Shown here piece by piece: positions 17,749 through 58,770 of a stretch of DNA of 58,770 nucleotides (its first letter is position 1; every line of letters starts with the position of its first letter). Source of the stretch: a virus. Lineage: Duplodnaviria; Caudoviricetes. The notes beneath the pieces were generated by a model. The model was not told the origin of the DNA. It saw only the letters and a program-made list of their open reading frames with translations, and did no database searches. Location of the stretch: positions 1 through 58,770 of IMG/VR virus record IMGVR_UViG_3300020283_000003; one strand, written 5' to 3'. Both the position numbers and the translations under genes were made by a program.

Positions 17749-20700
17749 TTATGTATATGCAATCGCTCTGATTGATCTGAACTTAGGAGGATCAGCAGCA
17801 TTTGTACCAGACATCATAATCTTGATTCTAAATCCTGTGAATTCAGTTAGGTCTTGAGCATTAAACTCATACTGGATGAATTCATCGGATAGAGGAGCAG
17901 ATGGTCTGATCTTTCTATCTGGGCGACCATTATTATTCAATTGAGTAATTACTTGATCACCTAATCCGTTACCATCAGTGTCTTTCAAGTTATCATAGCC
18001 AGGGAAGAGACGCCATGGAGCAGCACCACCTTCAGCACTTGTTTGAAGTTGATATGCAACACGGAAATCAGATGTTTCACTTCTGTATGCTTCAATAATA
18101 ACTTTTAAAGCAACTGATTCATTTTCAAGAGAAACATTCTTACTTACGTAAGCAGATGCGTGTGGATCTTCTCCACTAATGTTAACACGACCGTCTAGTG
18201 CGTAATTGCTGACTGGATCATTAATTCTAAAGAATTCAAATTCAGTTGCACCAACAGTAGAGTCAATAGTTGGAGATACATTTTCATCTGTTGTTTGTAA
18301 TGTGATTGCAGTTGTGAAAGACTTATTCCTGAATAATTCAGTGTTGTATGCGTCTTCGTTAACTTTAGATGCAATCATTCTTACATCACTAAATTCATTA
18401 ACATTACCAAGATCAATATTCACATAACCCTTATCTACGTAAGAGACTTCATTTCCACTTGGACTTGTACCTGTGATCGTTCTAGCTTGTGCAGTAACAG
18501 AAGTCTTACCAGTAGGTTTAATAACTCTGTAGTTAGGTTTGATGCTAGAGTACAACAAGTTAGTTGTAGTATCGATTTCATCACCACCAGCAGCACCGCT
18601 ATCAGCGAAACTTAGGAGTGGAGCGTTAACCAATGATCCATCATCAGTTCTGTCTGTACCATTTTGATCTCTTTGAATTCTGATATAGAAGTTATCAATA
18701 TCAAACTCATAAGGGTCAATGTCATGAGTTGTGTTAATTCTTCTGAGAGATACACCTTGTAGTTCATACAAGTCAACTTCTTCTCCAAGAGTATGTGGGG
18801 TAGAAACTGTACCATCAACACCTCTAGTGCCGATAGTTAATGTTCCTGCACCAACACCAGTGTAAGAAATAAGTTCTTGGTCAACCAAAACATAACCTGG
18901 GTTTGTTGCAGTTACTGGCATTCCTTCAAATGTATCATATCCAGCAGTAGAAGCAACCGAAATTACCGTGCTAGTAGAAGTAACATCTGCAGATAGTTGT
19001 GTTGCATCAGCAAGATCCTTACATCCACTAATAGTAATCTTGTTAGATCCACTATACATTCCGTGGTTTGGAAGATAAACAATTATCATGTCACCTTCGT
19101 TAGAGGTAGGACCAGTTCTTGCGGACAATGTAATTGTCGTAGTTCCAAGTGCTATTCTTGTTCCAGAGTCATTGTAGTAAACAAGTTTTTCGCTAGTAAC
19201 AAAGGTGTTACCACGTACATCTTCTAAGAATAATCTATCAACACCACTAGTTGCTTCAATTGACAACTGTGCTTGAGAACCAGCACCACCAGCGTCTGCT
19301 GTTGTAATACCGATAATGTCACCTACAGCATAACCATGTCCTGCAGTTACAATAGTTGCACCAGCAGCAGTTACGTTTCCATTTTCAACAAAGATGTTTG
19401 CTTTTGCACCAACTCCATTACCAGTAACAGCGAATAGATCAACATTATTATATTGACCATCGATGTAATCAGTACCACCAATAGCAACTGTAGAAATACC
19501 TGCGTAAGAACCAAATGTTAGGTCGATAGGACCACCTGTACTTTCAATAGTACCAAACTTATAGGAACTACCAGAACTACCACCTTCAGCAGCAGTTGCT
19601 TCACCAATCTTCCTACCAGTAGTAAGAATACCTGCCATCACAGTTCCATTTGTGACTGTATCAATACCAACGGTTACAGATCTAGAAATGACTTGGAATG
19701 AATCAGGATCTAATCTTCTGATGTAGTTGTTACTTACATCAAGATCTGGGTTGTGCATATAAACAGTACCAGAGGTAGCTGTAAATTTCGCTCTCTTAAG
19801 TCTGAATGTTAAATCTTCTTCCTGAGTTGGAGTCCAAATAGAACCGTTCTGAGACTTGAATAGAGAACCAGCACCCCACTGTTTACTATGCTGAGAGTTC
19901 TGACCTAATCCTAATGCCTTAAAGTTGAGTGTCTTAGAACCCATCCTTGCAAGGAAGACTTCATAAGAATCAGACTCAGACAAGAGAACGACACAGAATT
20001 CAGTGTTTGGAGCACAGAATACAGGAGACTTAAAGTTAAATGTAGTCTTATAAGTTTCATTACCTGCAGATGCACCAGTGTCAGGAACCAATGTAACTTG
20101 GTCTGGATCAAGTTTTACTTCAGAATATTCTAAAACATTTCTGGTTGGAATACCCAACTGCATTTGTCTGACTTCAAGGAATACTGGGAGTTTTTCATCC
20201 TTAGTATAGAACCAAACGTCAAGACTAGTAAGGAAGACACCACTAGCATCTGTTGTAAACGACTGTGCAAGAGGGTCTCTGTGGAAGTAAACCTTATACT
20301 TTGTCGTTCTCCAAGTTTCAATAACACCAGTAGACTTATAATCTGCTTGTCCTGAGGAGATCTTGGTAGATCCAGGAGTTGCTTTAGTATTGTTAATATC
20401 AGTGTTAAGAACAAATTGCTTAGTACCTGTCTTAAATCTGTTTGGAGGTGCAGGATTTGCAAGAGGATCTCTAATAAAGAAGCATGCTTGGATATCACCA
20501 AACTTATCAGAAACCAAACGAATCTGACTTACCTTTGCAGTAGCACCAGACTTTTGACCAGTCAGTAACATGTCATTAACAACATATCCACTGAATGAAC
20601 CCTGTGCTTCTTCTGCCATAGAAGCAACGTCAACGTTTATAATTGTCGAAGACTTAGAATATGTCGTAGGAATATTCTGTGCGGTATTGTATGGGTTTAT

Positions 20701-23700
20701 GCTATAAGTTCTATCTGGTTTGTTATACTTACCTCTCTTATGGTTAGGTGTACAAACTCTGAACTTAATTTTTGCCTTTCCTTTCTTACCAATTACAGTT
20801 TCACCAATTTTGAATGCACCTGTAACATCCTTGATTTCAAGGAGTTTTGGTACGATATCCAAATTATTACTTCCATCAAAGAAGTGGTAATACCTAGTTT
20901 TTGGTTTACAAGACAGCGCATCAACAAGTACGTTTCTAGAACGCATATACTCTTCCGCTTGCGACTTGATCTTCTCGACCTTATCTGCGGGTGTTGGCGT
21001 TGGTACGTCAACTTTCTTGTAAGTAGTGGTGTAAGTAGCGACGCGACGCATACAACGCCAGCCCCAGCCCCACCAGCCCCAATAGCCGTAGCGCCAACGA
21101 TATCCATACCAACCCCATCTCCACCAATATCCATATCTCCAACCACGACGATACCAGTAGTACCCCCAATGCCAATGGCACCATCTCCATCTATAACGAC
21201 CCCAATACCAACGCCAGCGACCCCACCAGCCCCACCAGTAACCAGTACGAACCCACTTATAACGTTTGGTAACAACCTTTACTGTTTTTTGCTTACCTTT
21301 AATCTTTACAGTTTGCTGAGTCTGAATCTTTCTAGACCAACTATCAATATCAGGTTTTAGTGTAATTGCAACTGCCCATGTAATAACGTTAAATGGGTTA
21401 ATATTACTTACACCAGTTGCTGCAAGTTGTTTTACCCACTCTTTCTCTTCATACTTAAGCATCAAGAGATCACCACGTTTAACGACGTTCTCATCTAAAA
21501 GGTCATAATCAATTGTACTATCGTAAGTAGAAGATGTTGTTTCGTCTTTAGTTACAATTAATGTTTTTAAAGATGCATTTGATGGTAATGGTGTAATTGT
21601 ACCGCTACCTTCATCACTCTGTTCACACTTATTATCTGGGTGTCCATCATCAATTTGTTCACTATTTTGGAAATTATCAGCAAAGAAACCATTTTTGAAT
21701 CGTGCTTTACCACTTGCATCTCTGATGTCAACATTTTTTGTTTGCTCTTCTAACATAGAAAGAGTAACTGCACTTTCAAGAGCACTGATCTTTCTATCTA
21801 ATTTACCAATATCAGCAAAGGTATATCTTCTTGGGTTTTCTAAATCAATATCAATAGAATCAGTTTCATCTGTATATGCAGGTAAAGTGATAGTACCCAA
21901 TAACATATGGTCAGCATCTAAATCATCAGGTTCACCCTCACCAGGCACACCTTGAACAATAGATAGATCACCATTTTTATTCAAGAAAAGTTTATCAGTT
22001 CTACTTAAGTAATATTCAAAACTTACAACAGATCCTTCCCCAACTGCTAAAGGTAGAGCTGGTTTATTATCAGCACCAAAGTCTCTAGATGCAAAACTAA
22101 ATGGAGGTGCAGTCGCAGTTGCTGGATCATATACAGAAACAGCAGGTCTAAAGTCTAAGACGTTTGTACCACCAGTAGTAGAACCATTTACTTCAGACTC
22201 CATATCTGGTATTAAACCTCTAAACACAGACTGTGGGTAACTATCTACAGTTACAACATCGCCATCATCTCCAGAAGGAACAGAGTAATAATCAAATACA
22301 ATTTTTAATTGTTTAGTTGGAGGTTGACCACTAGTAGCAGTTCTCTTAATAGAAGCATAGTTAGAGAACGCATGTTCCTGACCATTATTCAATTCATATC
22401 TGTAAGTAATATCCTTATAATTTCCATTAACAATACTATCAATACTTGCAACAATATCACTCTCATCAAAAGAAATATCTTCTCCAACAATAAACCTAGC
22501 ATCAGTTAGATATACAAAATCTACTTGAGCAGCACCAGGTTTTGCTACAAGTCTTGCAATTGCTTTACTACTAGCACCGATAATACTTTCACCAATAATC
22601 GCACTAGTCTGTACATTTTCTACAGAAGTTAGATTTAGTTTATCAAATGTAGGTGCATTACTATCAAAAGACTCATGAACAGCAATAATTTCAATAACCT
22701 CTGGATAGTTCAAACAAATTTTCTTGTCCTGAACTCTAGTTCCAAAAAATGTACTATAGGACAAACCATCATTTAAACTGTTATTTGCTGTAGATCCAGA
22801 CTGTTTGTTTGCAGATCGGGTAATATTTACGACATGTGAACGATTAACAACCTTATTTTTTGCCTTGAATTGAGGTTTCTTCATTACAACGTTGGCAACA
22901 ACGTTAGTCTGAGATGGTCTTAAACCTTTAAGTGTGATTGTATTTGAACCACTATTATATTCAAATTTGTTTGCTGTGATTGTTGCAATAACACCATCAG
23001 AATAAACAACACTATATCTGTCCTCATCAAATGCTTCAAATATAGCACCTTGAACACCACTGGTATTGGTGATTGTCATTTCACCAGAACCATTAGTTGC
23101 TAATGCAGTAAGTTGGGTATGGTACTCAAGACTTGAATTTTTTAGATCTACTGTTGCAACATCACTTTGTGGAAGAGCAACATACATCTCATCCTGTTGA
23201 ATGTTTTGTACAATAGGTGTAAAAGCAATAATTGTTGATGTAATATCCGCTGCAGGAAGAGCACCAGTAGTAATTCCAATAACATCTGTAGTCGCTTCTA
23301 TAGTAACTTCCTTACCAGTTTTTGCAATATCTTTTACTCTATACAATGTGGTAGTTGTAAAACCAACTTGTTGAACAGCAAGTAAAGAATCTGTCCTAAT
23401 ACCAGTAAGAGATTTACTATTAAGTGATACTTTACCAGTAGTGGTAATATTAAACTGGTCTGTTTCTTTAAATCCAGGAACAGGTTGACCAACTAAAAGT
23501 ACATCACCATAAAAATCTGCCTGTAGACCTAGTGTAGAAGCTTGCTGATAAACAGATTTTACATCAGTACTATCAAAGACTCTTACATCTAATGTTTTTC
23601 TAGCATTCTCTTTAACACCATTAATATAAATTTGTTCACCTTGGATGAAGGTTCCAGATGTATCCCTTACAAAAATCTTAGCACTTCCAGTACCAGCTGC

Positions 23701-25185
23701 GGTTACATATCCAGATGCACCACTAGATTGACCTGTGATATATGCACCTGCAGGAAGTTGAGCAGCACTGAGAGGGTTGGCAAGATGTAACTTCTGATAT
23801 AATGTTACGTCATAAACAAATAAAGTAAATGGAGTACTAGGAGATAAGTATTCTCCAGAACTTAAATTAAAAGAATAACACCTAGCATCACCAATTCTTT
23901 CACCTGCAAGAGTTGTTCCATTAGCACCTAATCTTTGACTGTATAATTGAATTTCTCTCTTAATTGCAGGATGTCCATAAACATTATTTACTTGAATTTG
24001 ACTACCTAGATTATATGGAACAAAAGCTTGTTCAACTTTACGAGTTGTTCTTGGTTTTGGAATATCTAAAATTGTTGCAACAGGTTTATCGATATCATAA
24101 CCTTTTACATATGCTTTACCAGATCCAATAGAAACACAAGCTAAATCATCAGAAGGAACATTACCTTCATCAGTTACTTGGTTATCATAGTAAAGACCAT
24201 TATTACCTCTTCTATTATTCAAACACTCATGGAAAGTGATGTCAAAAGGTTCAACAAAGAAGTTACCAGTTTTCTCAAAATCTCTTTCAGCAATATAATC
24301 TTTAATAACAGAATATTGTGGTTTATTAGGAACTGTTAAAAGTACACCTTCTTCTACTCTTAAGAGTTCAATAAAACTTGAGTCATTAAGATCAGTAAGA
24401 CTCTTTTTAACTAAGGTAGTTTGTATTTTAAATCTATCAGCACCAGGAGCAGCAAAGTTAGTGAAACCCTTTGCATTATCATATAAAGTATTATCTTGCT
24501 TTGCGTTTACAATTTCTTCACTAATTTGAAGACCGACTCTGTATGAAGGAGCATCGTTTGCTTCGTCTAAAACTACTGTTTGCTTTTTAACGTCAACGAA
24601 GTAACCTCTGAAGAAGAAAGTACCTGCATCTACGTGAGCAGCAGAACCTATTTGTGCTGCACTTGTTGCAATAGTAACTGCAAAAGTGTTTCCACTAGAA
24701 ATAGTTGTATTTCCATATACGACGTTTTCTTCAGTAATTAAAGTCTCTCCATCTTGGAAAGCACCTACATCATTACTAGCTGTACCAGAAGTATATTTTA
24801 TGAAAAGAGTAATATTACCACTTTCTGTTTGCGAAGATAGAAGAACATTTACGATCTTTGCTTCAAGACCTGTTTGTTGTCCTCTAATCTCTTTTCCTAC
24901 AAAGGATGAAATATAATCACTAACATTTAAACCAAGGAAAGTTGATTCAATCTGAATTGATTGATAATCAAAATCATAGCTAACTCCACCAGGTATTACA
25001 ACAGATCCATCTTTGAAAGTATGTCTAGCAAATTTTTCAATCTGATTCTGAAGAATAGATTGAGACGTAGTTAATTCTCTAGCCTGTACTGGAAAACCAG
25101 GCTTAAACAATACCCTATAGTAATTGTTTTCTGCGTCAAAATCGTCATAATATGGATTGATATTTAAATTGGTTCTTTGTGGCAT
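17749..25185 (-). CDS. large virion structural protein, VrlC/DUF4815-like
   Basis: PYYDDFD...YYRVLFKPGFPVQARELT, APGADR, RFKNGFFADNF, DPLAQSF, GSLFKSQN; downstream of gp8 as in cyanomyoviruses. Confidence 0.85.
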   Translation of the reverse strand: MPQRTNLNINPYYDDFDAENNYYRVLFKPGFPVQARELTTSQSILQNQIEKFARHTFKDGSVVIPGGVSYDFDYQSIQIESTFLGLNVSDYISSFVGKEIRGQQTGLEAKIVNVLLSSQTESGNITLFIKYTSGTASNDVGAFQDGETLITEENVVYGNTTISSGNTFAVTIATSAAQIGSAAHVDAGTFFFRGYFVDVKKQTVVLDEANDAPSYRVGLQISEEIVNAKQDNTLYDNAKGFTNFAAPGADRFKIQTTLVKKSLTDLNDSSFIELLRVEEGVLLTVPNKPQYSVIKDYIAERDFEKTGNFFVEPFDITFHECLNNRRGNNGLYYDNQVTDEGNVPSDDLACVSIGSGKAYVKGYDIDKPVATILDIPKPRTTRKVEQAFVPYNLGSQIQVNNVYGHPAIKREIQLYSQRLGANGTTLAGERIGDARCYSFNLSSGEYLSPSTPFTLFVYDVTLYQKLHLANPLSAAQLPAGAYITGQSSGASGYVTAAGTGSAKIFVRDTSGTFIQGEQIYINGVKENARKTLDVRVFDSTDVKSVYQQASTLGLQADFYGDVLLVGQPVPGFKETDQFNITTTGKVSLNSKSLTGIRTDSLLAVQQVGFTTTTLYRVKDIAKTGKEVTIEATTDVIGITTGALPAADITSTIIAFTPIVQNIQQDEMYVALPQSDVATVDLKNSSLEYHTQLTALATNGSGEMTITNTSGVQGAIFEAFDEDRYSVVYSDGVIATITANKFEYNSGSNTITLKGLRPSQTNVVANVVMKKPQFKAKNKVVNRSHVVNITRSANKQSGSTANNSLNDGLSYSTFFGTRVQDKKICLNYPEVIEIIAVHESFDSNAPTFDKLNLTSVENVQTSAIIGESIIGASSKAIARLVAKPGAAQVDFVYLTDARFIVGEDISFDESDIVASIDSIVNGNYKDITYRYELNNGQEHAFSNYASIKRTATSGQPPTKQLKIVFDYYSVPSGDDGDVVTVDSYPQSVFRGLIPDMESEVNGSTTGGTNVLDFRPAVSVYDPATATAPPFSFASRDFGADNKPALPLAVGEGSVVSFEYYLSRTDKLFLNKNGDLSIVQGVPGEGEPDDLDADHMLLGTITLPAYTDETDSIDIDLENPRRYTFADIGKLDRKISALESAVTLSMLEEQTKNVDIRDASGKARFKNGFFADNFQNSEQIDDGHPDNKCEQSDEGSGTITPLPSNASLKTLIVTKDETTSSTYDSTIDYDLLDENVVKRGDLLMLKYEEKEWVKQLAATGVSNINPFNVITWAVAITLKPDIDSWSRKIQTQQTVKIKGKQKTVKVVTKRYKWVRTGYWWGWWGRWRWYWGRYRWRWCHWHWGYYWYRRGWRYGYWWRWGWYGYRWRYGYWGWWGWGWRCMRRVATYTTTYKKVDVPTPTPADKVEKIKSQAEEYMRSRNVLVDALSCKPKTRYYHFFDGSNNLDIVPKLLEIKDVTGAFKIGETVIGKKGKAKIKFRVCTPNHKRGKYNKPDRTYSINPYNTAQNIPTTYSKSSTIINVDVASMAEEAQGSFSGYVVNDMLLTGQKSGATAKVSQIRLVSDKFGDIQACFFIRDPLANPAPPNRFKTGTKQFVLNTDINNTKATPGSTKISSGQADYKSTGVIETWRTTKYKVYFHRDPLAQSFTTDASGVFLTSLDVWFYTKDEKLPVFLEVRQMQLGIPTRNVLEYSEVKLDPDQVTLVPDTGASAGNETYKTTFNFKSPVFCAPNTEFCVVLLSESDSYEVFLARMGSKTLNFKALGLGQNSQHSKQWGAGSLFKSQNGSIWTPTQEEDLTFRLKRAKFTATSGTVYMHNPDLDVSNNYIRRLDPDSFQVISRSVTVGIDTVTNGTVMAGILTTGRKIGEATAAEGGSSGSSYKFGTIESTGGPIDLTFGSYAGISTVAIGGTDYIDGQYNNVDLFAVTGNGVGAKANIFVENGNVTAAGATIVTAGHGYAVGDIIGITTADAGGAGSQAQLSIEATSGVDRLFLEDVRGNTFVTSEKLVYYNDSGTRIALGTTTITLSARTGPTSNEGDMIIVYLPNHGMYSGSNKITISGCKDLADATQLSADVTSTSTVISVASTAGYDTFEGMPVTATNPGYVLVDQELISYTGVGAGTLTIGTRGVDGTVSTPHTLGEEVDLYELQGVSLRRINTTHDIDPYEFDIDNFYIRIQRDQNGTDRTDDGSLVNAPLLSFADSGAAGGDEIDTTTNLLYSSIKPNYRVIKPTGKTSVTAQARTITGTSPSGNEVSYVDKGYVNIDLGNVNEFSDVRMIASKVNEDAYNTELFRNKSFTTAITLQTTDENVSPTIDSTVGATEFEFFRINDPVSNYALDGRVNISGEDPHASAYVSKNVSLENESVALKVIIEAYRSETSDFRVAYQLQTSAEGGAAPWRLFPGYDNLKDTDGNGLGDQVITQLNNNGRPDRKIRPSAPLSDEFIQYEFNAQDLTEFTGFRIKIMMSGTNAADPPKFRSIRAIAYT

Positions 25186-25194
25186 TGTCTCAGT

Positions 25195-26751
25195 TTAGAA
25201 TTCCAGTACGATTTTTACGTCTTCTCTTTGTCTCAGGTTCCTCGAAACGGTTTGCCTGTTATCAATATATATAAGCTCACCCGATGAGACTTCAATTTCT
25301 GGACCAGAAAGACCGCTTGTGAAGTTAATTCCAAGATCTATTAGAGCACCTGCGCTACTTACTGTATTAATACCAGTAAATCCTGTATTGATTGTGCAAC
25401 TTGCAGAACCAATTGTGACGTTCGCTACGGCACTTGTAAAGGCATGTTTGATGAAAGATTGACGAGAAGCAAATGGGTCGTCTTCTTGATTTGTTGTAGA
25501 CTGGTTAAAGTATAAAGATCTATCTTGAGCATATCTAACAACATTTGTTGAACTATCAAAAGATGTTACCCATCCAAAGGCAGTAACACCAGCACCGATA
25601 GTTTGAGAAATTTTAGATCCTACGTTAATTTGCGTAATGTCAGAAATTGTATCTAAAACAATCGCATTTGTGGAACTAAATGAATTAGAAGACTGTACAG
25701 ATGTCGAACCAACAGAAAGTGGGTTCTTAAGTAGAGCAACTTGTGAGAATTTTGTAGAAGTTGGGAAATCACCGATATCGTCAAAACGAGCATAGATCAA
25801 AACTTTGTCAGCACCTAATTCATTATATGCATTAAAACCATGTCCTTTTGTTGGTGGAATGATTGGAATTAAGAATGCTCTATCAGTAATAGATCCAGTA
25901 TTAATTGAAGATAAATCAACAATACCAAAAGAATAACCACTACCACCAGATGATACAGTGGCACTAGTAATCTTACCTGAAGTATCTACAGATAAAACTG
26001 CCTTTGCTCCTGTTCCATCACCAAGGATATCAACGGGTTGGTTTTGCCCAATACCATATCCCGCACCTTGTTTTTCAATATAAACTGTTTTAATTTGATT
26101 CAGGTTTACATCCGAGTTTCCATTATCTCTAACCGCTGCAACTGGACCTGTAGCCGTTTCCCATTCATTTGGTACAGGTATGTACTCCAAAGTATCAAAC
26201 TTAATAATATCTCCAGGTGAGACAGTATACATATATTTCCAAACATAACCATCTCCACTATTACCCGCTTTAGATGGTTCAAGGTCAGTAAAAGTTGGTT
26301 CATCAAGAGATTGATTACCAACAGTATTGATACCTGAAGAACCGTTCTGTAAACAAATATAGACTTGGAAGTCTGAGTTCATTACATAGTAGTTCGCATC
26401 ATATAATCTAGTAGAGTTGGTTACAGGAGATGGAGATTGAATACTGTAATCGTGTCGGTACATTTCATAAATTGTACCTTGCGTCCAGTCAACTCTTCTA
26501 ATTAATCTTCTGATATTGTCTTTGGTAATTTTCTTACCAAAAAGTGCAGTATCACGAACATGATTAGCATAGTTGAAATCATCTACTGGATACGGGGTTG
26601 AATTATCCCAATCGGAACTCCTACCAAAACCAACCTGAGTTGGGTTCGCGAGTCCAAGAACGACATAATACGAATTATTTGAATCTGAAACATCAGACAC
26701 GAAATTGGCTGCGTTTAGGATCCTAAATTGGTCTGATACTATAGCGGGCAT
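25195..26751 (-). CDS. gp8: baseplate wedge protein
   Basis: MPAIVSDQFRILNA, YYVMNSDFQVYICLQNG, DGYVWKYMY, QREDVKIVLEF. Confidence 0.92.
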   Translation of the reverse strand: MPAIVSDQFRILNAANFVSDVSDSNNSYYVVLGLANPTQVGFGRSSDWDNSTPYPVDDFNYANHVRDTALFGKKITKDNIRRLIRRVDWTQGTIYEMYRHDYSIQSPSPVTNSTRLYDANYYVMNSDFQVYICLQNGSSGINTVGNQSLDEPTFTDLEPSKAGNSGDGYVWKYMYTVSPGDIIKFDTLEYIPVPNEWETATGPVAAVRDNGNSDVNLNQIKTVYIEKQGAGYGIGQNQPVDILGDGTGAKAVLSVDTSGKITSATVSSGGSGYSFGIVDLSSINTGSITDRAFLIPIIPPTKGHGFNAYNELGADKVLIYARFDDIGDFPTSTKFSQVALLKNPLSVGSTSVQSSNSFSSTNAIVLDTISDITQINVGSKISQTIGAGVTAFGWVTSFDSSTNVVRYAQDRSLYFNQSTTNQEDDPFASRQSFIKHAFTSAVANVTIGSASCTINTGFTGINTVSSAGALIDLGINFTSGLSGPEIEVSSGELIYIDNRQTVSRNLRQREDVKIVLEF

Positions 26752-50659: not shown

Positions 50660-50826
50660 GAATTTACCTCTACTTTAATGTCTTTTGATGCTGGATGTCC
50701 CTTTTCGTAGTACTGATGGGCAAGATCTTCGAGAGTCTCGAACATTTCTTCCTCTGAAAGATCCTTCCATGCCACTACACCCTTGATTGAAATGTTATAT
50801 GTTTCAGATAACTCTTGTTTTTTCAT
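50656..50826 (-). CDS. 56-aa hypothetical protein
   Basis: Translated by hand: MKKQELSETYNISIKGVVAWKDLSEEEMFETLEDLAHQYYEKGHPASKDIKVEVNS. Confidence 0.6.
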   Translation of the reverse strand: MKKQELSETYNISIKGVVAWKDLSEEEMFETLEDLAHQYYEKGHPASKDIKVEVNS

Positions 50827-51568
50827 GTCCTACACGTATATTTGGGTCACACCAGATCTCAAAACCTGCTGCAATCGCATCTAAACAGAAAGAAACGTCT
50901 TCTCCGCACATATCTTGTACCTCTCCTGACTCAAATTCTTGCATTTTTGGAGCAAACCAAGGATATTTCATTTCTGGGTGTTCAAAAACTCCTTTTTTGA
51001 TGAGTACCCACCCAAATCCTGTGTAATCCACCGTGAAGGGCTTACGGCGCTTTTGCATACTTTCACCAGTTTCATGATTCATGACACCTCCATTGGTACG
51101 GAAGTCTTGCTCCTCCAACCAGTGAGCGACAGAAGTTGTGCGTCCATCTTCGGTCATGTACCAACCTGCAGCAATATCCTTCTCCATAAGGATTAACTGT
51201 AAGAATTGTGCAGAGTTAAAGATAATATCACTATCAATCCACAGTTGATAATCGTACTTGAGTTTACCGTCCCATGGGATTTGGTTAGGACCACGTAGGA
51301 CATTTGCACCTAATACCTTACAACGTGCAAAGTTGACCATTGATGAGTAATCCTGAGAGATTTGGATACTCACACCCATTTGTACCAGATCAAAACATAG
51401 TTGAACAAAGTTCTTCATGAATGCATATGAACAACCACGACCAGGTAGGCACAGTACAACTGCCTTACCTTTTGCTATTTCCTTTGCTTTTTCGTAGTCG
51501 TATTCTATTTCTTTTTTCTTTCCTCCCTTAGTCGGAGTCTTTGCCTTTACAGTAAATCCTTTAGCCAT
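50804..51568 (-). CDS. glycosyltransferase-like (GT-A fold) protein
   Basis: DxD motif in YQLWIDSDIIF; TGFGWVLIKKGVFE; GEDVSFC; RVGH. Confidence 0.7.
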   Translation of the reverse strand: MAKGFTVKAKTPTKGGKKKEIEYDYEKAKEIAKGKAVVLCLPGRGCSYAFMKNFVQLCFDLVQMGVSIQISQDYSSMVNFARCKVLGANVLRGPNQIPWDGKLKYDYQLWIDSDIIFNSAQFLQLILMEKDIAAGWYMTEDGRTTSVAHWLEEQDFRTNGGVMNHETGESMQKRRKPFTVDYTGFGWVLIKKGVFEHPEMKYPWFAPKMQEFESGEVQDMCGEDVSFCLDAIAAGFEIWCDPNIRVGHEKTRVI

Positions 51569-56415: not shown

Positions 56416-56626
56416 GTAGTGCCCCCTTTACATCGCTGGTTAAAATTGTAGAGTAACCGTTGGTGATGTTGTCAACCAGGTTATCATAAGTTTGTAGATC
56501 CCATCCTTTCTGATCAGGGATATCCAAATCATAACCCATCATGACTAGGTCATACATCATGTCAAATTGTGACGGGGTTAATTGAATGTTGATGCCGTTT
56601 GGTGATTGTCTCATAATAAAATTCAA
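56405..56626 (-). CDS. hypothetical early protein
   Basis: ORF after promoter unit 7; true start may be the ATG at 56614. Confidence 0.6.
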   Translation of the reverse strand: MNFIMRQSPNGINIQLTPSQFDMMYDLVMMGYDLDIPDQKGWDLQTYDNLVDNITNGYSTILTSDVKGALHGK

Positions 56627-56636
56627 CGTTACATTT

Positions 56637-56696
56637 AATTTAATCTACAGGAACTGCAGTTGCAAGTCCTCGTGTGCCAGTTAATTAATTGGCATG
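56637..56696 (-). promoter_or_regulatory. dyad + promoter unit 7
   Basis: CATGCCA-N10-TGGCACA (56673-56696); TTGCAA-N17-TAAATT; -10 is 30 nt from the dyad. Confidence 0.65.
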
Positions 56697-56954
56697 TACG
56701 TAATCATAATCTTGTAGGAGGATGTCACGGACTCTTTCACGATCCAAGGAATCACCATCTCCCCACGAATAGTGCACATATTCCAAATCACCTTTCATGC
56801 ATCGATCGATGTAATCTAATGCTGCTCTCAAGATATCCACTTTGTGCAGTGGTTCCTGTGTGCTTTGTTCGATCAGCGGATAGAGCGGATCATTGGTACC
56901 GTAGAATGAATCAACGTAATCTACGAACTCTGGAACATTGTTAGGATAATCCAT
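56685..56954 (-). CDS. hypothetical early protein
   Basis: FVDYVDSFYG...LYP...WGDGDSLDRERVRDIL; GAGG upstream. Confidence 0.7.
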   Translation of the reverse strand: MDYPNNVPEFVDYVDSFYGTNDPLYPLIEQSTQEPLHKVDILRAALDYIDRCMKGDLEYVHYSWGDGDSLDRERVRDILLQDYDYVHAN

Positions 56955-56974
56955 AAACCTCTGAGAAATGACGA

Positions 56975-57065
56975 GAGAAACAAAAACTGGACTTATGTTG
57001 CTTTACATGAGAATTACTAACTCTTCGAGTGTTGTTCCGATCTGGGCATGCCAGTTTTGTTTCCC
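56975..57065 (-). ncRNA. candidate structured leader or small RNA
   Basis: ~15-bp closing stem GGGAAACAAAACTGG/CCAGTTTTTGTTTCTC beginning at the predicted TSS of promoter unit 8. Confidence 0.5.
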
Positions 57066-57071
57066 ATCTTT

Positions 57072-57130
57072 AATATACATCAAAAAAGGCACCCTTGGTG
57101 GATGCCTGTGCCACTAATATTATTGTCACA
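57072..57130 (-). promoter_or_regulatory. dyad + terminator-like hairpin + -10 promoter unit 8
   Basis: TGTGACA-N10-TGGCACA (57107-57130); AGGCATCC/GGTGCCT-TTTTT hairpin; TATATT 29 nt downstream. Confidence 0.65.
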
Positions 57131-57161
57131 TCTGGTATACATCATTCTCAATAACGAGGTA

Positions 57162-57368
57162 CTATTGAGAATAAAGAATATCGGCTGCCTGGTCCACATC
57201 GTCTTCCTCATGCTCCGAGACGGTAACCTCGACTGTCTCGTCTGATTCCAACATGAGAATTCTATGCCAATCCAGTACCCGCAGCACCTGCGCGTCTAGA
57301 TCCCCGTATGCATCTAGATCTAGATGCACTGAGACTTTACGTTTTTGACTGAGGTAAGGAGTTGACAT
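57162..57368 (-). CDS. hypothetical protein
   Basis: 68-aa ORF with an upstream TTGCGC-N17-TATAAT promoter. Confidence 0.65.
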   Translation of the reverse strand: MSTPYLSQKRKVSVHLDLDAYGDLDAQVLRVLDWHRILMLESDETVEVTVSEHEEDDVDQAADILYSQ

Positions 57369-57389
57369 AAGGAGTAGAGGTGTGCTAAG

Positions 57390-57714
57390 CTCGACTAGAT
57401 TATTATATCACTCATAGGGTTTGCGCGCAAGCTCGTCGAGATTGTGTACGTCTCGCGCAGGTATCTCGTCGAGATTAGTACGCATGTGCTCGTCCGCGTC
57501 AGGAAGCTCGACGAGATATTCATAAGACCAATCGTACATAGCTCGACTAGATTGTGTGTGTCATACATGTAGTATAGCATATTTATGAGAACTCGTCGAG
57601 ATTTGTTACAGTTTGTGAACATTCTAGACGAGATTATTATAATGCGCGAAAGCTAGTCGAGAATTATGATGTGTGTATCTCGACTAGATCATAATGCGCG
57701 GATCTCGACTAGAT
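57390..57714. repeat. array of ten 11-bp quasi-palindromic repeats CTMGWCKAGAT
   Basis: Copies start at 57390, 57432, 57465, 57507, 57542, 57592, 57624, 57653, 57679, 57704. Confidence 0.85.
57402..57430 (-). promoter_or_regulatory. sigma70-like promoter TTGCGC-N17-TATAAT flanked by repeats 1 and 2
   Basis: -35 at 57425-57430 and -10 at 57402-57407. Confidence 0.6.
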
Positions 57715-57729
57715 TTTGGGGCGGTGGGG

Positions 57730-57758
57730 TTGACAAACTCCGATTCTTATGCTATGCT
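57730..57758 (+). promoter_or_regulatory. sigma70-like promoter TTGACA-N17-TATGCT (extended -10)
   Basis: -35 at 57730-57735 and -10 at 57753-57758; points toward the GIY-YIG gene. Confidence 0.7.
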
Positions 57759-57887
57759 CGCTAAGATAACATAAGATCTCTACCTTTCTCAATAATTAAT
57801 GATAATGAGAATCAATTACATCACACAACCATATTTTTGTCAATAATTCCCTATATACATGTACATACGTGAACATCTCATTATTCT

Positions 57888-58649
57888 ATGGCAATAAAAC
57901 AAGGTACAATCTACTGTATTACCAACAAAGTAAATAAGAAACAATACGTAGGACATACAACTCTACCAATTAACAAGATATGGAAGAATCACATAACAGA
58001 TACTACCCATAAGGACTTATACAAGGATATAAAACAACAAGGTACTGGTAGATTTAATATATCTGTATTGGAAGAAACAACAACTGATAGGTTAGAAGAA
58101 CGTAAGGACTATTATATTAGTAAACTGGGTAGTGAATATAATAACCGTGAGGTAGCAGAAAAGATAATAATAAAGAATAAGGAGAAGACCAAGGAATGGG
58201 TCAACAACATAAAGAATAGTATTAATAAGAAAGTAGCATCAGGAGAGAAATGGGGTTTTATGTGTGAAGAGCATAGAGGTGACGGTACACACATGAAACA
58301 GAAGATAGAGGGAACATGTGTCAAGACTGGAGATATAAAGATATGGAATAGTATAAGTGATGCAGCAGCAGATGTCGCAGGTGATAAGAAGAGAAATGGT
58401 AATATTGTACTGGCAGCCCGTAATGGATGGGAAGCATACGGGTACACATGGAAAAAGATAGGTAAGAACCTACACAAACGTAAAATATATGGTGTACACA
58501 AGTCTAATGGTAAGAAGACAATGGTATATGAATCTATATCTGCTGCCGAGCGTACTATTAATGGTAAACGTGGCGGTGGTATTCGTAAATCGTTATTATA
58601 TCCTGGTAAAAGGACATGGAAAGGTTATTATTGGTATTATGCCGATTGA
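57888..58649 (+). CDS. GIY-YIG/Seg-like protein with two NUMOD1-like domains, probably nuclease-inactive
   Basis: GTIYCITNKVNKKQYVG; WNSISDAA...AYGYTWK and YESISAAER...WKGYYWYY repeats; catalytic Arg and Glu appear substituted. Confidence 0.8.
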   Translation: MAIKQGTIYCITNKVNKKQYVGHTTLPINKIWKNHITDTTHKDLYKDIKQQGTGRFNISVLEETTTDRLEERKDYYISKLGSEYNNREVAEKIIIKNKEKTKEWVNNIKNSINKKVASGEKWGFMCEEHRGDGTHMKQKIEGTCVKTGDIKIWNSISDAAADVAGDKKRNGNIVLAARNGWEAYGYTWKKIGKNLHKRKIYGVHKSNGKKTMVYESISAAERTINGKRGGGIRKSLLYPGKRTWKGYYWYYAD

Positions 58650-58770
58650 TTATTCTTTATCTGGTGGATTATCAGGTGCAATGAGGTGACCACCAATATG
58701 ATGATCAGTCCACATGTTGTGTATCCATCCTGTTACAATATACTTGTTACCTGAGAGTACCATGTTACCC
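58650..58770 (-). CDS. C-terminus of a probable 2OG-Fe(II) oxygenase (partial)
   Basis: Translated by hand: ...GNMVLSGNKYIVTGWIHNMW...; matches the (H.)G..V.SG.KY..TGW end of prolyl-hydroxylase-like oxygenases. Confidence 0.6.
   Translation of the reverse strand, partial: GNMVLSGNKYIVTGWIHNMWTDHHIGGHLIAPDNPPDKE

Follow-up and report, generated by a model that had tools for sequence, protein, structure and literature searches.

A conserved palindrome array at predicted early promoters of a T4-like cyanophage as candidate operator sites

The stretch of viral DNA analyzed here, IMG/VR fragment IMGVR_UViG_3300020283_000003 (58,770 bases, with an estimated completeness of 29%; hereafter the window), carries an array of ten short palindromes with the consensus ATCTCG-W-CGAGAT at positions 57388..57714, an element with no strand of its own. 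On balance, we favor the reading that the array is a set of operator-type docking sites, probably for a phage-encoded dimeric protein, that control immediate-early promoters. This reading draws on what was observed of the sites: that they exist, are symmetric and conserved, and keep a fixed geometry with respect to predicted promoters and to a start codon. Protein family searches place the window among the T4-like cyanomyoviruses (Kyanoviridae). An original prediction, made from the sequence, had described the array as a multi-site protein-binding platform and had offered several options for its role. The platform itself is supported by dyad symmetry, by arms that vary independently and by conservation of both position and sequence. 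Among the options listed, a master operator for the early region is the best fit, as predicted early promoters have palindromes over their spacers, -35 elements and start regions.

Ten symmetric sites over predicted promoters

The repeat was originally described as ten copies of an 11-mer, and both the starts (57390, 57432, 57465, 57507, 57542, 57592, 57624, 57653, 57679 and 57704) and the start-to-start periods (42, 33, 42, 35, 50, 32, 29, 26 and 25 nucleotides) were recovered. The pattern CTMGWCKAGAT is enriched here, with 12 matches over both strands against 0.14 expected, all of them inside 57390-57714. The repeat unit, however, is palindromic and 13-15 bp long, (A)ATCTCG-W-CGAGAT(T), and not a directional 11-mer. 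Scanning with the 13-mer places the copies at 57388, 57430, 57463, 57505, 57540, 57590, 57622, 57651, 57677 and 57702, with 0-3 mismatches to ATCTCGWCGAGAT; elsewhere in the window the 13-mer has seven matches with 2-3 mismatches, which is chance level. The array is also CpG-rich, as had been noticed, with an observed/expected ratio of 1.88 compared to 0.52 for the whole window. The description of the spacers as largely non-repetitive holds in that they lack long repeats, but a GCGCG-type motif recurs before five copies.

An AT tail had been read as giving all copies the same orientation, a view that we could not uphold, as the tail forms the outermost part of the right half-site. In relatives, the flanks of 684 unique sites mirror each other (left A 0.69 and T 0.78; right A 0.80 and T 0.67). 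In the window, nine of the ten copies have the tail (copy 8 ends in AA), the left halves are more degenerate, with AG, AA or TT replacing AT, and the copies at 57463, 57677 and 57702 match the motif on both strands. Because the flanks are symmetric and these three copies match both strands, the sites have no intrinsic orientation. The arms do alternate between CTCG/CTAG and CGAG/CTAG with dyad symmetry kept, but they change independently rather than as pairs. Across the same 684 sites, variants on both arms occur 27 times compared to 23.5 expected (Fisher p 0.38), and 200 sites (29%) have a change confined to one arm, in the pair beside the loop. Independent arm variation therefore argues for protein half-sites and not for a selected hairpin.

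The palindromes occupy specific positions relative to the promoters of the window, all of which are consensus predictions. Inside the array lies a tiny acidic open reading frame (ORF) of 43 amino acids (aa) at 57408..57539 on the minus strand, within which copies 4, 3 and 2 are in frame and read LVEL, LDEI and LDEL. Its predicted promoter, TCGACG-17-TATACT with a TG element (57571..57599, minus strand, 9/12 matches), has its -35 element within copy 6, and copy 5 falls between the start region and the ATG. The next gene, encoding an acidic 68-aa protein (57162..57368, minus strand; phrog_12516 family, E value 1.3e-07), has a putative promoter TTGCGC-17-TATAAT with TG at 57402..57430 on the minus strand, where copy 2 abuts the -35 element and copy 1 covers the expected start. 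This promoter was read from the sequence; the promoter scan did not return it because its first hexamer matches at only 3/6 positions, yet it agrees with the leftward promoter that repeats 1 and 2 had been said to bracket. A weaker promoter-like element, TCGACT-16-AATAAT at 57633..57660 on the minus strand, has its -35 in copy 8 and copy 7 at the start. The promoter scan gave a plus-strand alternative there, TGAACA-16-TATAAT at 57616-57643, and the direction is ambiguous, the two scoring 9 and 10 of 12, respectively. Copies 6 and 8 thus provide -35-like TCGAC hexamers, and copies 5, 7 and 1 lie at or just past expected starts. Beyond repeat 10, the scan also recovered the rightward TTGACA promoter of the original prediction, here called P(R), a predicted extended -10 promoter (TTGACA-17-TATGCT with TG) at 57730..57758 on the plus strand.

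Constraint on the array is visible in close relatives. All ten copies are also present in a 97.5% identical relative (L108), and of its 24 differences over 924 bp only 2 fall in the 327-bp array compared to 16 in the 207-bp gene for the 68-aa protein; the single change within a 13-mer affects the outermost base. Against an 84% identical relative, the five common sites are all kept, one of them with its central base flipped, while the spacers have diverged. DNA nearly identical to the array stretch occurs in 14 marine metagenome DNA runs from six studies, one of which may be the source of the window. Contigs from an RNA library that are identical to the window span 56612-57065 and 57337-57495, and they are compatible with transcription across copies 1-3; such contigs may stem from DNA carry-over, give no starts, strands or levels, and leave the uncovered parts, the endonuclease gene among them, uninformative. 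A blastn search of 56900-58770 against a phage collection gave no match.

A conserved layout beside an origin-like cassette

We collected relatives with a scan for two adjacent copies in a 25-50 bp pattern, and the counts for relatives given here are those among the matches listed. Arrays of this palindrome recur in at least 151 viral-contig stretches and in the isolates P-SSM2, S-T4 and S-SRM01. Among the matches listed, 138 have a cluster of at least three sites and 82 a cluster of at least five, with up to 11. ORFs lying up to 2 kb from the arrays, in 80 flanked loci and the window (81 sources), were grouped into clusters. A tiny Tyr/Asp-rich acidic gene, the family of the 43-aa ORF, lies next to the array on the same strand in 61 of the 81 sources (cluster 0), a count that the common palindromes may inflate; the conserved N and C termini of the family lie outside the palindromes. 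It is followed by an acidic gene of ~50 aa in 56/81 sources (cluster 1), which in the window is the 68-aa gene. Beyond these lie other acidic mini-genes and a protein with a weak likeness to ArdA (E value of 0.015, below the Pfam cut-off).

The geometry of the sites is fixed relative to the tiny gene. Over 47 unique loci, site centers lie at about -7, -49, -82, -114, -146, +58 and +91 from its ATG, and the window has a shifted layout with centers at -7, -57, -89, -118, -144, -169, +28, +70, +103 and +145. In 31 of the 47 loci the -49 site fills the spacer of the predicted promoter, giving TTGC-palindrome-N(1-4, mostly 3)-TGnTAnnnT; the counterpart in P-SSM2 is TTGACA-palindrome-TATAAT. A second unit, palindrome-TGCATATATACT-palindrome, is found upstream of it. 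Secondary arrays of three to four palindromes sit at gene boundaries deeper in the early block, where we saw neither a sigma-70 promoter nor a promoter/AT-rich cassette.

Among isolates, P-SSM2 has one array of four sites, S-T4 one array of five and S-SKS1 two sites, while S-SRM01 has three arrays within 5.5 kb that hold 13 of the 15 sites in its genome. Several contigs carry two to four arrays. No palindrome arrays were found in the isolates S-SSM4, Syn9, S-PM2, P-HM2, P-TIM40 and P-SSM4. In S-T4 (NC_048049.1), the array region is repeated at 2748-2933 and 174317-174502, with identical spacing and 171,569 bp apart; the repeat is a terminal duplication of the deposited linear record, and the unique genome therefore has one array. 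By tblastn, the 68-aa protein itself had no match, and a typical member of its family was found only in S-SRM01, S-SKS1 and S-T4. Where the 50-aa gene would be expected in P-SSM2, after the tiny acidic gene, there is an unannotated 41-aa ORF, MGVQVYELAQRSDLGVPPKK... (L010:7974-8100, after PSSM2_098), which to the eye alone looks helix-turn-helix-like.

Past the distal end of the array, 43 of the 47 unique loci have an outward TTGACA promoter with a conserved leader. In relatives this promoter is flanked by CTTATG and CA(T/C)AAG, and in those free of endonuclease genes it has no gene of its own. Direct YAYAAG tandem repeats follow, with 166 matches on the same strand compared to 28 on the opposite strand and 22 in a reversed control (41 loci). 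After these repeats comes one of two elements, either an inverted repeat, ATTCTCAAT...ATTGAGAAT, or three to five words resembling DnaA boxes, TTTTCCACA/TTATCCACA, as judged by the DnaA-box consensus. Clusters of such 8-mers occur in 11/80 loci, with 82 matches overall compared to 30.6 in shuffled sequences, and the cassette ends in an AT-rich block with GTTTTTTAAT-type repeats. Clusters next to an AT-rich tract and the outward promoter were seen at loci L015, L034, L049, L051, L056, L073, L077, L081, L084 and L030/L031, and in isolates at 151415-151457 of S-SKS1, 19232-19256 of S-PM2 and 26593-26623 of S-SSM4. In S-SSM4 and S-PM2, the outward promoter, DnaA boxes and AT-rich tract are kept although palindrome arrays are absent.

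The counterpart in the window is degenerate. P(R) is flanked by the inverted repeat CTTATG (57746-57751)/CATAAG (57770-57775), so that only one exact CATAAG and one inverted CTTATG are present, followed by the inverted repeat TTTCTCAAT-N10-AATGAGAAT (57785..57812, no strand) downstream of P(R). The AT-rich tract adjoining the array had been anticipated and is present at 57780..57880 (GC of 0.287), between P(R) and a GIY-YIG/NUMOD1 homing-endonuclease-like gene of 253 aa (57888..58649, plus strand). The tract is a shortened counterpart of the block in relatives, the GIY-YIG gene occupying the place of the GTTTTTTAAT-type repeats. No DnaA-like 8-mer was found within 3 kb of the array, and no initiator family was found among the proteins of the window. 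In 26/81 sources a GIY-YIG family gene lies downstream of the outward promoter, diverging from the array (e.g., L083:3546-4286, L089:3572-4405 and L040:177-917), and S-SRM01 has an HNH endonuclease at this position. The cassette seems to be a homing hot spot, with the endonuclease probably expressed from P(R).

The secondary arrays without the cassette, together with the cassette without palindromes in S-SSM4 and S-PM2, imply that the two modules are separable. The palindromes are a lineage-specific layer on early promoters and not a defining part of the origin-like cassette. As this cassette lies directly beside the array, the idea of an origin survives for the neighboring DNA, which is a candidate for a structure built like a replication origin. 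An inflection in GC skew had been suggested as a sign of replication starting here, and the analysis was run, but the skew never changes sign, either in the window or in nine cyanophage genomes, and so cannot decide the question.

Proposed mechanism and competing explanations

We infer from this geometry that one sequence-specific protein, putatively encoded by the phage, could dock as a symmetric dimer on ATCTCG-W-CGAGAT, at sites built in and around the sigma-70-type promoters of the first small acidic genes. Sitting on the -35 element or spacer and on the transcript start, it would shut out host RNA polymerase and would thereby switch immediate-early promoters, most likely off after the protein has accumulated. 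Spacing by whole helical turns might let neighboring dimers cooperate. As the array abuts the origin-like cassette, it may also couple early transcription to whatever role the cassette has.

Several points weigh against operator-type control of early promoters. The promoters are all consensus predictions. Secondary arrays have no sigma-70 promoter, and promoter occlusion therefore cannot account for every array. Where the genome is complete, the sites lie in a single region of at most 5.5 kb beside the origin-like cassette, which also fits an origin-linked role. The peaks in site spacing at ~24, 32, 41, 51 and 62 bp count in favor of this control, but the histogram is biased by the 25-50 bp search pattern and by related sequences. 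Clustering of array neighbors revealed no binding protein, nearly all of these neighbors being strongly acidic, and the only recurrent basic one is the GIY-YIG homing endonuclease, in 26/81 sources. A presence/absence screen by tblastn, in which S-T4 ORFs had to occur in P-SSM2 and S-SRM01 and in none of Syn9, S-PM2, P-HM2, P-SSM4 and S-SSM4 (P-TIM40 left out), left 29 ORFs, none of them a candidate for DNA binding; common ancestry confounds the screen, which is also insensitive for ORFs of <60 aa. Many of the 29 are antisense artifacts; those that are genuine encode a gp2-like end protector, glycosyltransferases, a ferredoxin, an epimerase and structural proteins.

An alternative hypothesis is that the palindromes belong to a phage origin, where an initiator or organizing protein would bind and help to open AT-rich DNA in the manner of iterons. 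We consider this improbable for the palindromes themselves, although much of the locus is in keeping with it: the array always abuts the conserved outward promoter (43/47 loci), which lacks a gene of its own in endonuclease-free relatives, the strand-biased YAYAAG repeats and DnaA-box-like clusters exceed their controls, an AT-rich block follows, S-T4 and P-SSM2 each have a single array per genome, and a single theta origin has been predicted for cyanophage Syn9 (PMC2984593). Syn9 itself lacks arrays, however, as do P-HM2, P-TIM40 and P-SSM4, and the cassette persists without palindromes in S-SSM4 and S-PM2. The iteron-type origin of the original prediction also fails on orientation, as the sites are palindromes rather than oriented iterons, and on placement, as S-SRM01 has three arrays and several contigs two to four, with the extra arrays away from any promoter/AT-rich cassette. 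In the window there is no DnaA-box cluster near the array, the endonuclease gene sits in the AT-rich part and no initiator gene was found among the proteins, and the one-signed GC skew of all nine genomes is no help. Less probable still, in our view, is that the palindromes are ParB/KorB- or ParR-like loading or roadblock sites that silence or insulate the early region at a distance or organize DNA near the origin. A 13-bp palindrome with a single central base, with an apparent resemblance to KorB and parS sites, clusters of 3-11 sites with several clusters within a few kilobases, secondary arrays at gene boundaries without promoters, and proximity to an origin-like cassette would all suit such a role. 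Against it, no ParB, ParR or ParA family match was found among the window proteins (~29% of the genome) or the array-linked ORFs, and a lytic T4-type phage has no known need for partition. The related option of a packaging or segregation site found no corresponding gene in the same ~29% of the genome.

Two further explanations dispense with a dedicated binding protein. If the palindromes acted as nucleic-acid structures, they would form RNA hairpins in early transcripts, for processing or control of translation, or DNA cruciforms. The -7 site and those within the tiny gene would indeed be transcribed if the predicted promoters fire, and RNA-library contigs (with the carry-over noted above) cover 57337-57495. 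The stem, however, would have at most five pairs, mostly A-T, many sites lie upstream of promoters, the arms do not covary and 29% of sites are changed on one side only at the pair by the loop. No Rfam family matched at gathering thresholds, the two rows returned being at chance level (E value of about 2), and we regard a structural role as very improbable; the original view that a processed repeat-spacer RNA is less likely is also supported. Least credible to us is that the repeats lack any function of their own and arose only as a side effect of cassette shuffling or of repetitive acidic coding sequence (LDE-type codons). A site in frame does read (D)LDE(I/L/D), copies 2-4 are in phase inside the 43-aa ORF, and an inverted-repeat element lies in direct copies on either side of the module. 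Yet copies 1 and 5-10 lie outside that ORF, the spacing of copies 5-10 does not keep a reading frame, 47 loci agree in where the sites lie relative to promoters, and the array is more conserved than the adjacent gene. A clustered regularly interspaced short palindromic repeat (CRISPR)-like array, which would have direct repeats of at least 23 bp at a regular period, spacers of equal size and cas genes, was also rejected, since the repeats are only 13-bp palindromes with periods of 25-50 bp, the window has no cas family and Rfam gave no match.

The dimeric protein proposed for operator-type control is probably encoded by the phage. In three Prochlorococcus and two Synechococcus genomes the palindrome is not enriched, the 11-mer core having 0-4 copies compared to 4-10 for a reversed control; as that control differs in CTAG and TCGA content, we do not interpret the apparent depletion. 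A host regulon with this palindrome is therefore unlikely, and a host factor was ruled against by the same five picocyanobacterial genomes. The 68-aa protein was considered as a ribbon-helix-helix binder on account of a KRxVxVTL motif, which is unlikely, though not disproved. It is strongly acidic, its would-be contact residues are not conserved, and its structural model (predicted local distance difference test [pLDDT] score of 77.5) is mostly coil or extended chain with no PDB match in Foldseek. Within its gene, 57293-57330 holds further ATCTAG half-sites in the form of GCGTCTAGATC and the palindrome TGCATCTAGATCTAGATGCA, read as HLDLD, and the counterpart in the 84% identical relative is TCGAGCTCGAGC, with the same CTAG/CGAG alternation as in the array. 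A few kilobases from the array, at 50804-51568 (minus strand), is a 254-aa phrog_1574 protein with a weak glycosyltransferase-like match. Among nine isolates its family occurs only in the four palindrome carriers (S-T4, P-SSM2, S-SRM01 and S-SKS1), always near the array region, a co-occurrence that common ancestry may explain.

Surrounding genes and known systems

The remainder of the window is typical of its group. Its minus strand encodes, among others, gp23, gp20, gp18, gp17, gp6, gp8, gp25, a member of the Kyanoviridae Gp96 family and two giant structural ORFs. The giant ORFs lie among baseplate genes: one of 7120 aa (26801-48163, minus strand) contains a YHYH domain and weakly matches a baseplate-wedge family, and one of 2478 aa (17749-25185, minus strand) matches phrog_358 and DUF4815. 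A block of small, mostly acidic ORFs extends leftward from the array, and one small gene near the array has its closest isolates in S-SSM4/S-SSM6b (62%) and P-SSM2 (55%). The strand switch originally placed at the array exists, but it is due only to the GIY-YIG endonuclease gene at 57888-58649, after which the tail of a minus-strand gene follows at 58650-58769. Past the 68-aa gene, a terminator-like hairpin with a T run (57087..57107, minus strand) has eight pairs, five of them G-C, and the tail TTTTTTGATG. A perfect inverted repeat, ATTCTCAAT-N11-ATTGAGAAT, lies over the stop codon of the same gene (57144..57172; one match compared to 0.00 expected). This repeat and the one downstream of P(R), each within ~55 bp of direct similarity and 640 bp apart, bracket the module of array and acidic genes, and the element also follows P(R) in many relatives and some secondary arrays. 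Its role could be that of a further protein site, a stem-loop in RNA or the boundary of a recombination cassette.

A literature search, with most subscription papers outside its reach, found no published description of the palindrome; the only phage match to a string search (PMC5349666) was a coincidental terminator sequence. The locus is a precise test object: its site measures 13 bp, its promoter layout is fixed, and S-T4, P-SSM2 and S-SRM01 are carriers in culture. It could yield the regulator and show whether one control region links early transcription to the initiation of replication. Few viruses in the ocean are as abundant as T4-like cyanophages. To our knowledge, they lack the MotA/AsiA middle-mode switch, and we know of no work that has settled how early genes are timed without it or mapped where replication starts. 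We speculate, as an idea that we hold to be rather doubtful, that one clade of T4-like cyanophages has a dedicated early-region silencer, in which a dimeric protein, assembled on the arrays at immediate-early promoters and at gene boundaries next to the candidate replication origin, shuts the first genes and hands the locus to replication. If true, T4-type phages would have a switch from early genes to replication of a new type, and its binder would come from no recognised family.

Among cassettes in phages of the same type, promoter-early stem-loop (PeSL) elements were reportedly described by Arbiol et al. in 2010 from hyperplastic regions of T4-type phages. Like these, the arrays form regulatory cassettes between small early genes, in a module bracketed by copies of an inverted repeat. 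Unlike these, the palindromes have no stem covariation and are clustered in arrays rather than one per gene. The likeness to T4 origins belongs to the DNA beside the array and not to the palindromes. T4 oriF and oriG consist of a promoter with a downstream unwinding element, whereas T4 oriE has iterons. The cassette in endonuclease-free relatives resembles oriF/oriG in that a promoter without its own gene would fire into direct repeats and an AT-rich block, but it adds host-type DnaA boxes, and the window's own cassette departs from T4 origins in being short and carrying an endonuclease gene.

Operators of temperate phages and repeat platforms of plasmids offer the other comparisons. In lambda OR/OL (bound by CI and Cro) and the P22 operators of Arc and Mnt, several short dyad sites lie over divergent early promoters. 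As in those systems, short dyad sites in the window overlap -35, spacer and start regions, with a spacing that would allow cooperation. In contrast, the array has ten sites rather than three, continues into a coding gene and recurs at gene boundaries, and it belongs to a lytic T4-type phage in which no repressor gene was found. Small dimeric proteins also bind repeat platforms, such as R1 parC with ParR, the pSM19035 omega heptads and the 13-bp palindromes of RK2 KorB. Like these, the array clusters many short repeats at a promoter, an arrangement bound in the known cases cooperatively along one face of the DNA, and its site shares with that of KorB the form of a 13-bp palindrome with one central base. 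The array differs from all three in that neither the window nor the array-linked ORFs hold a homologue of ParR, omega, KorB or ParB, and in that its spacing is variable (25-50 bp) where theirs is contiguous.

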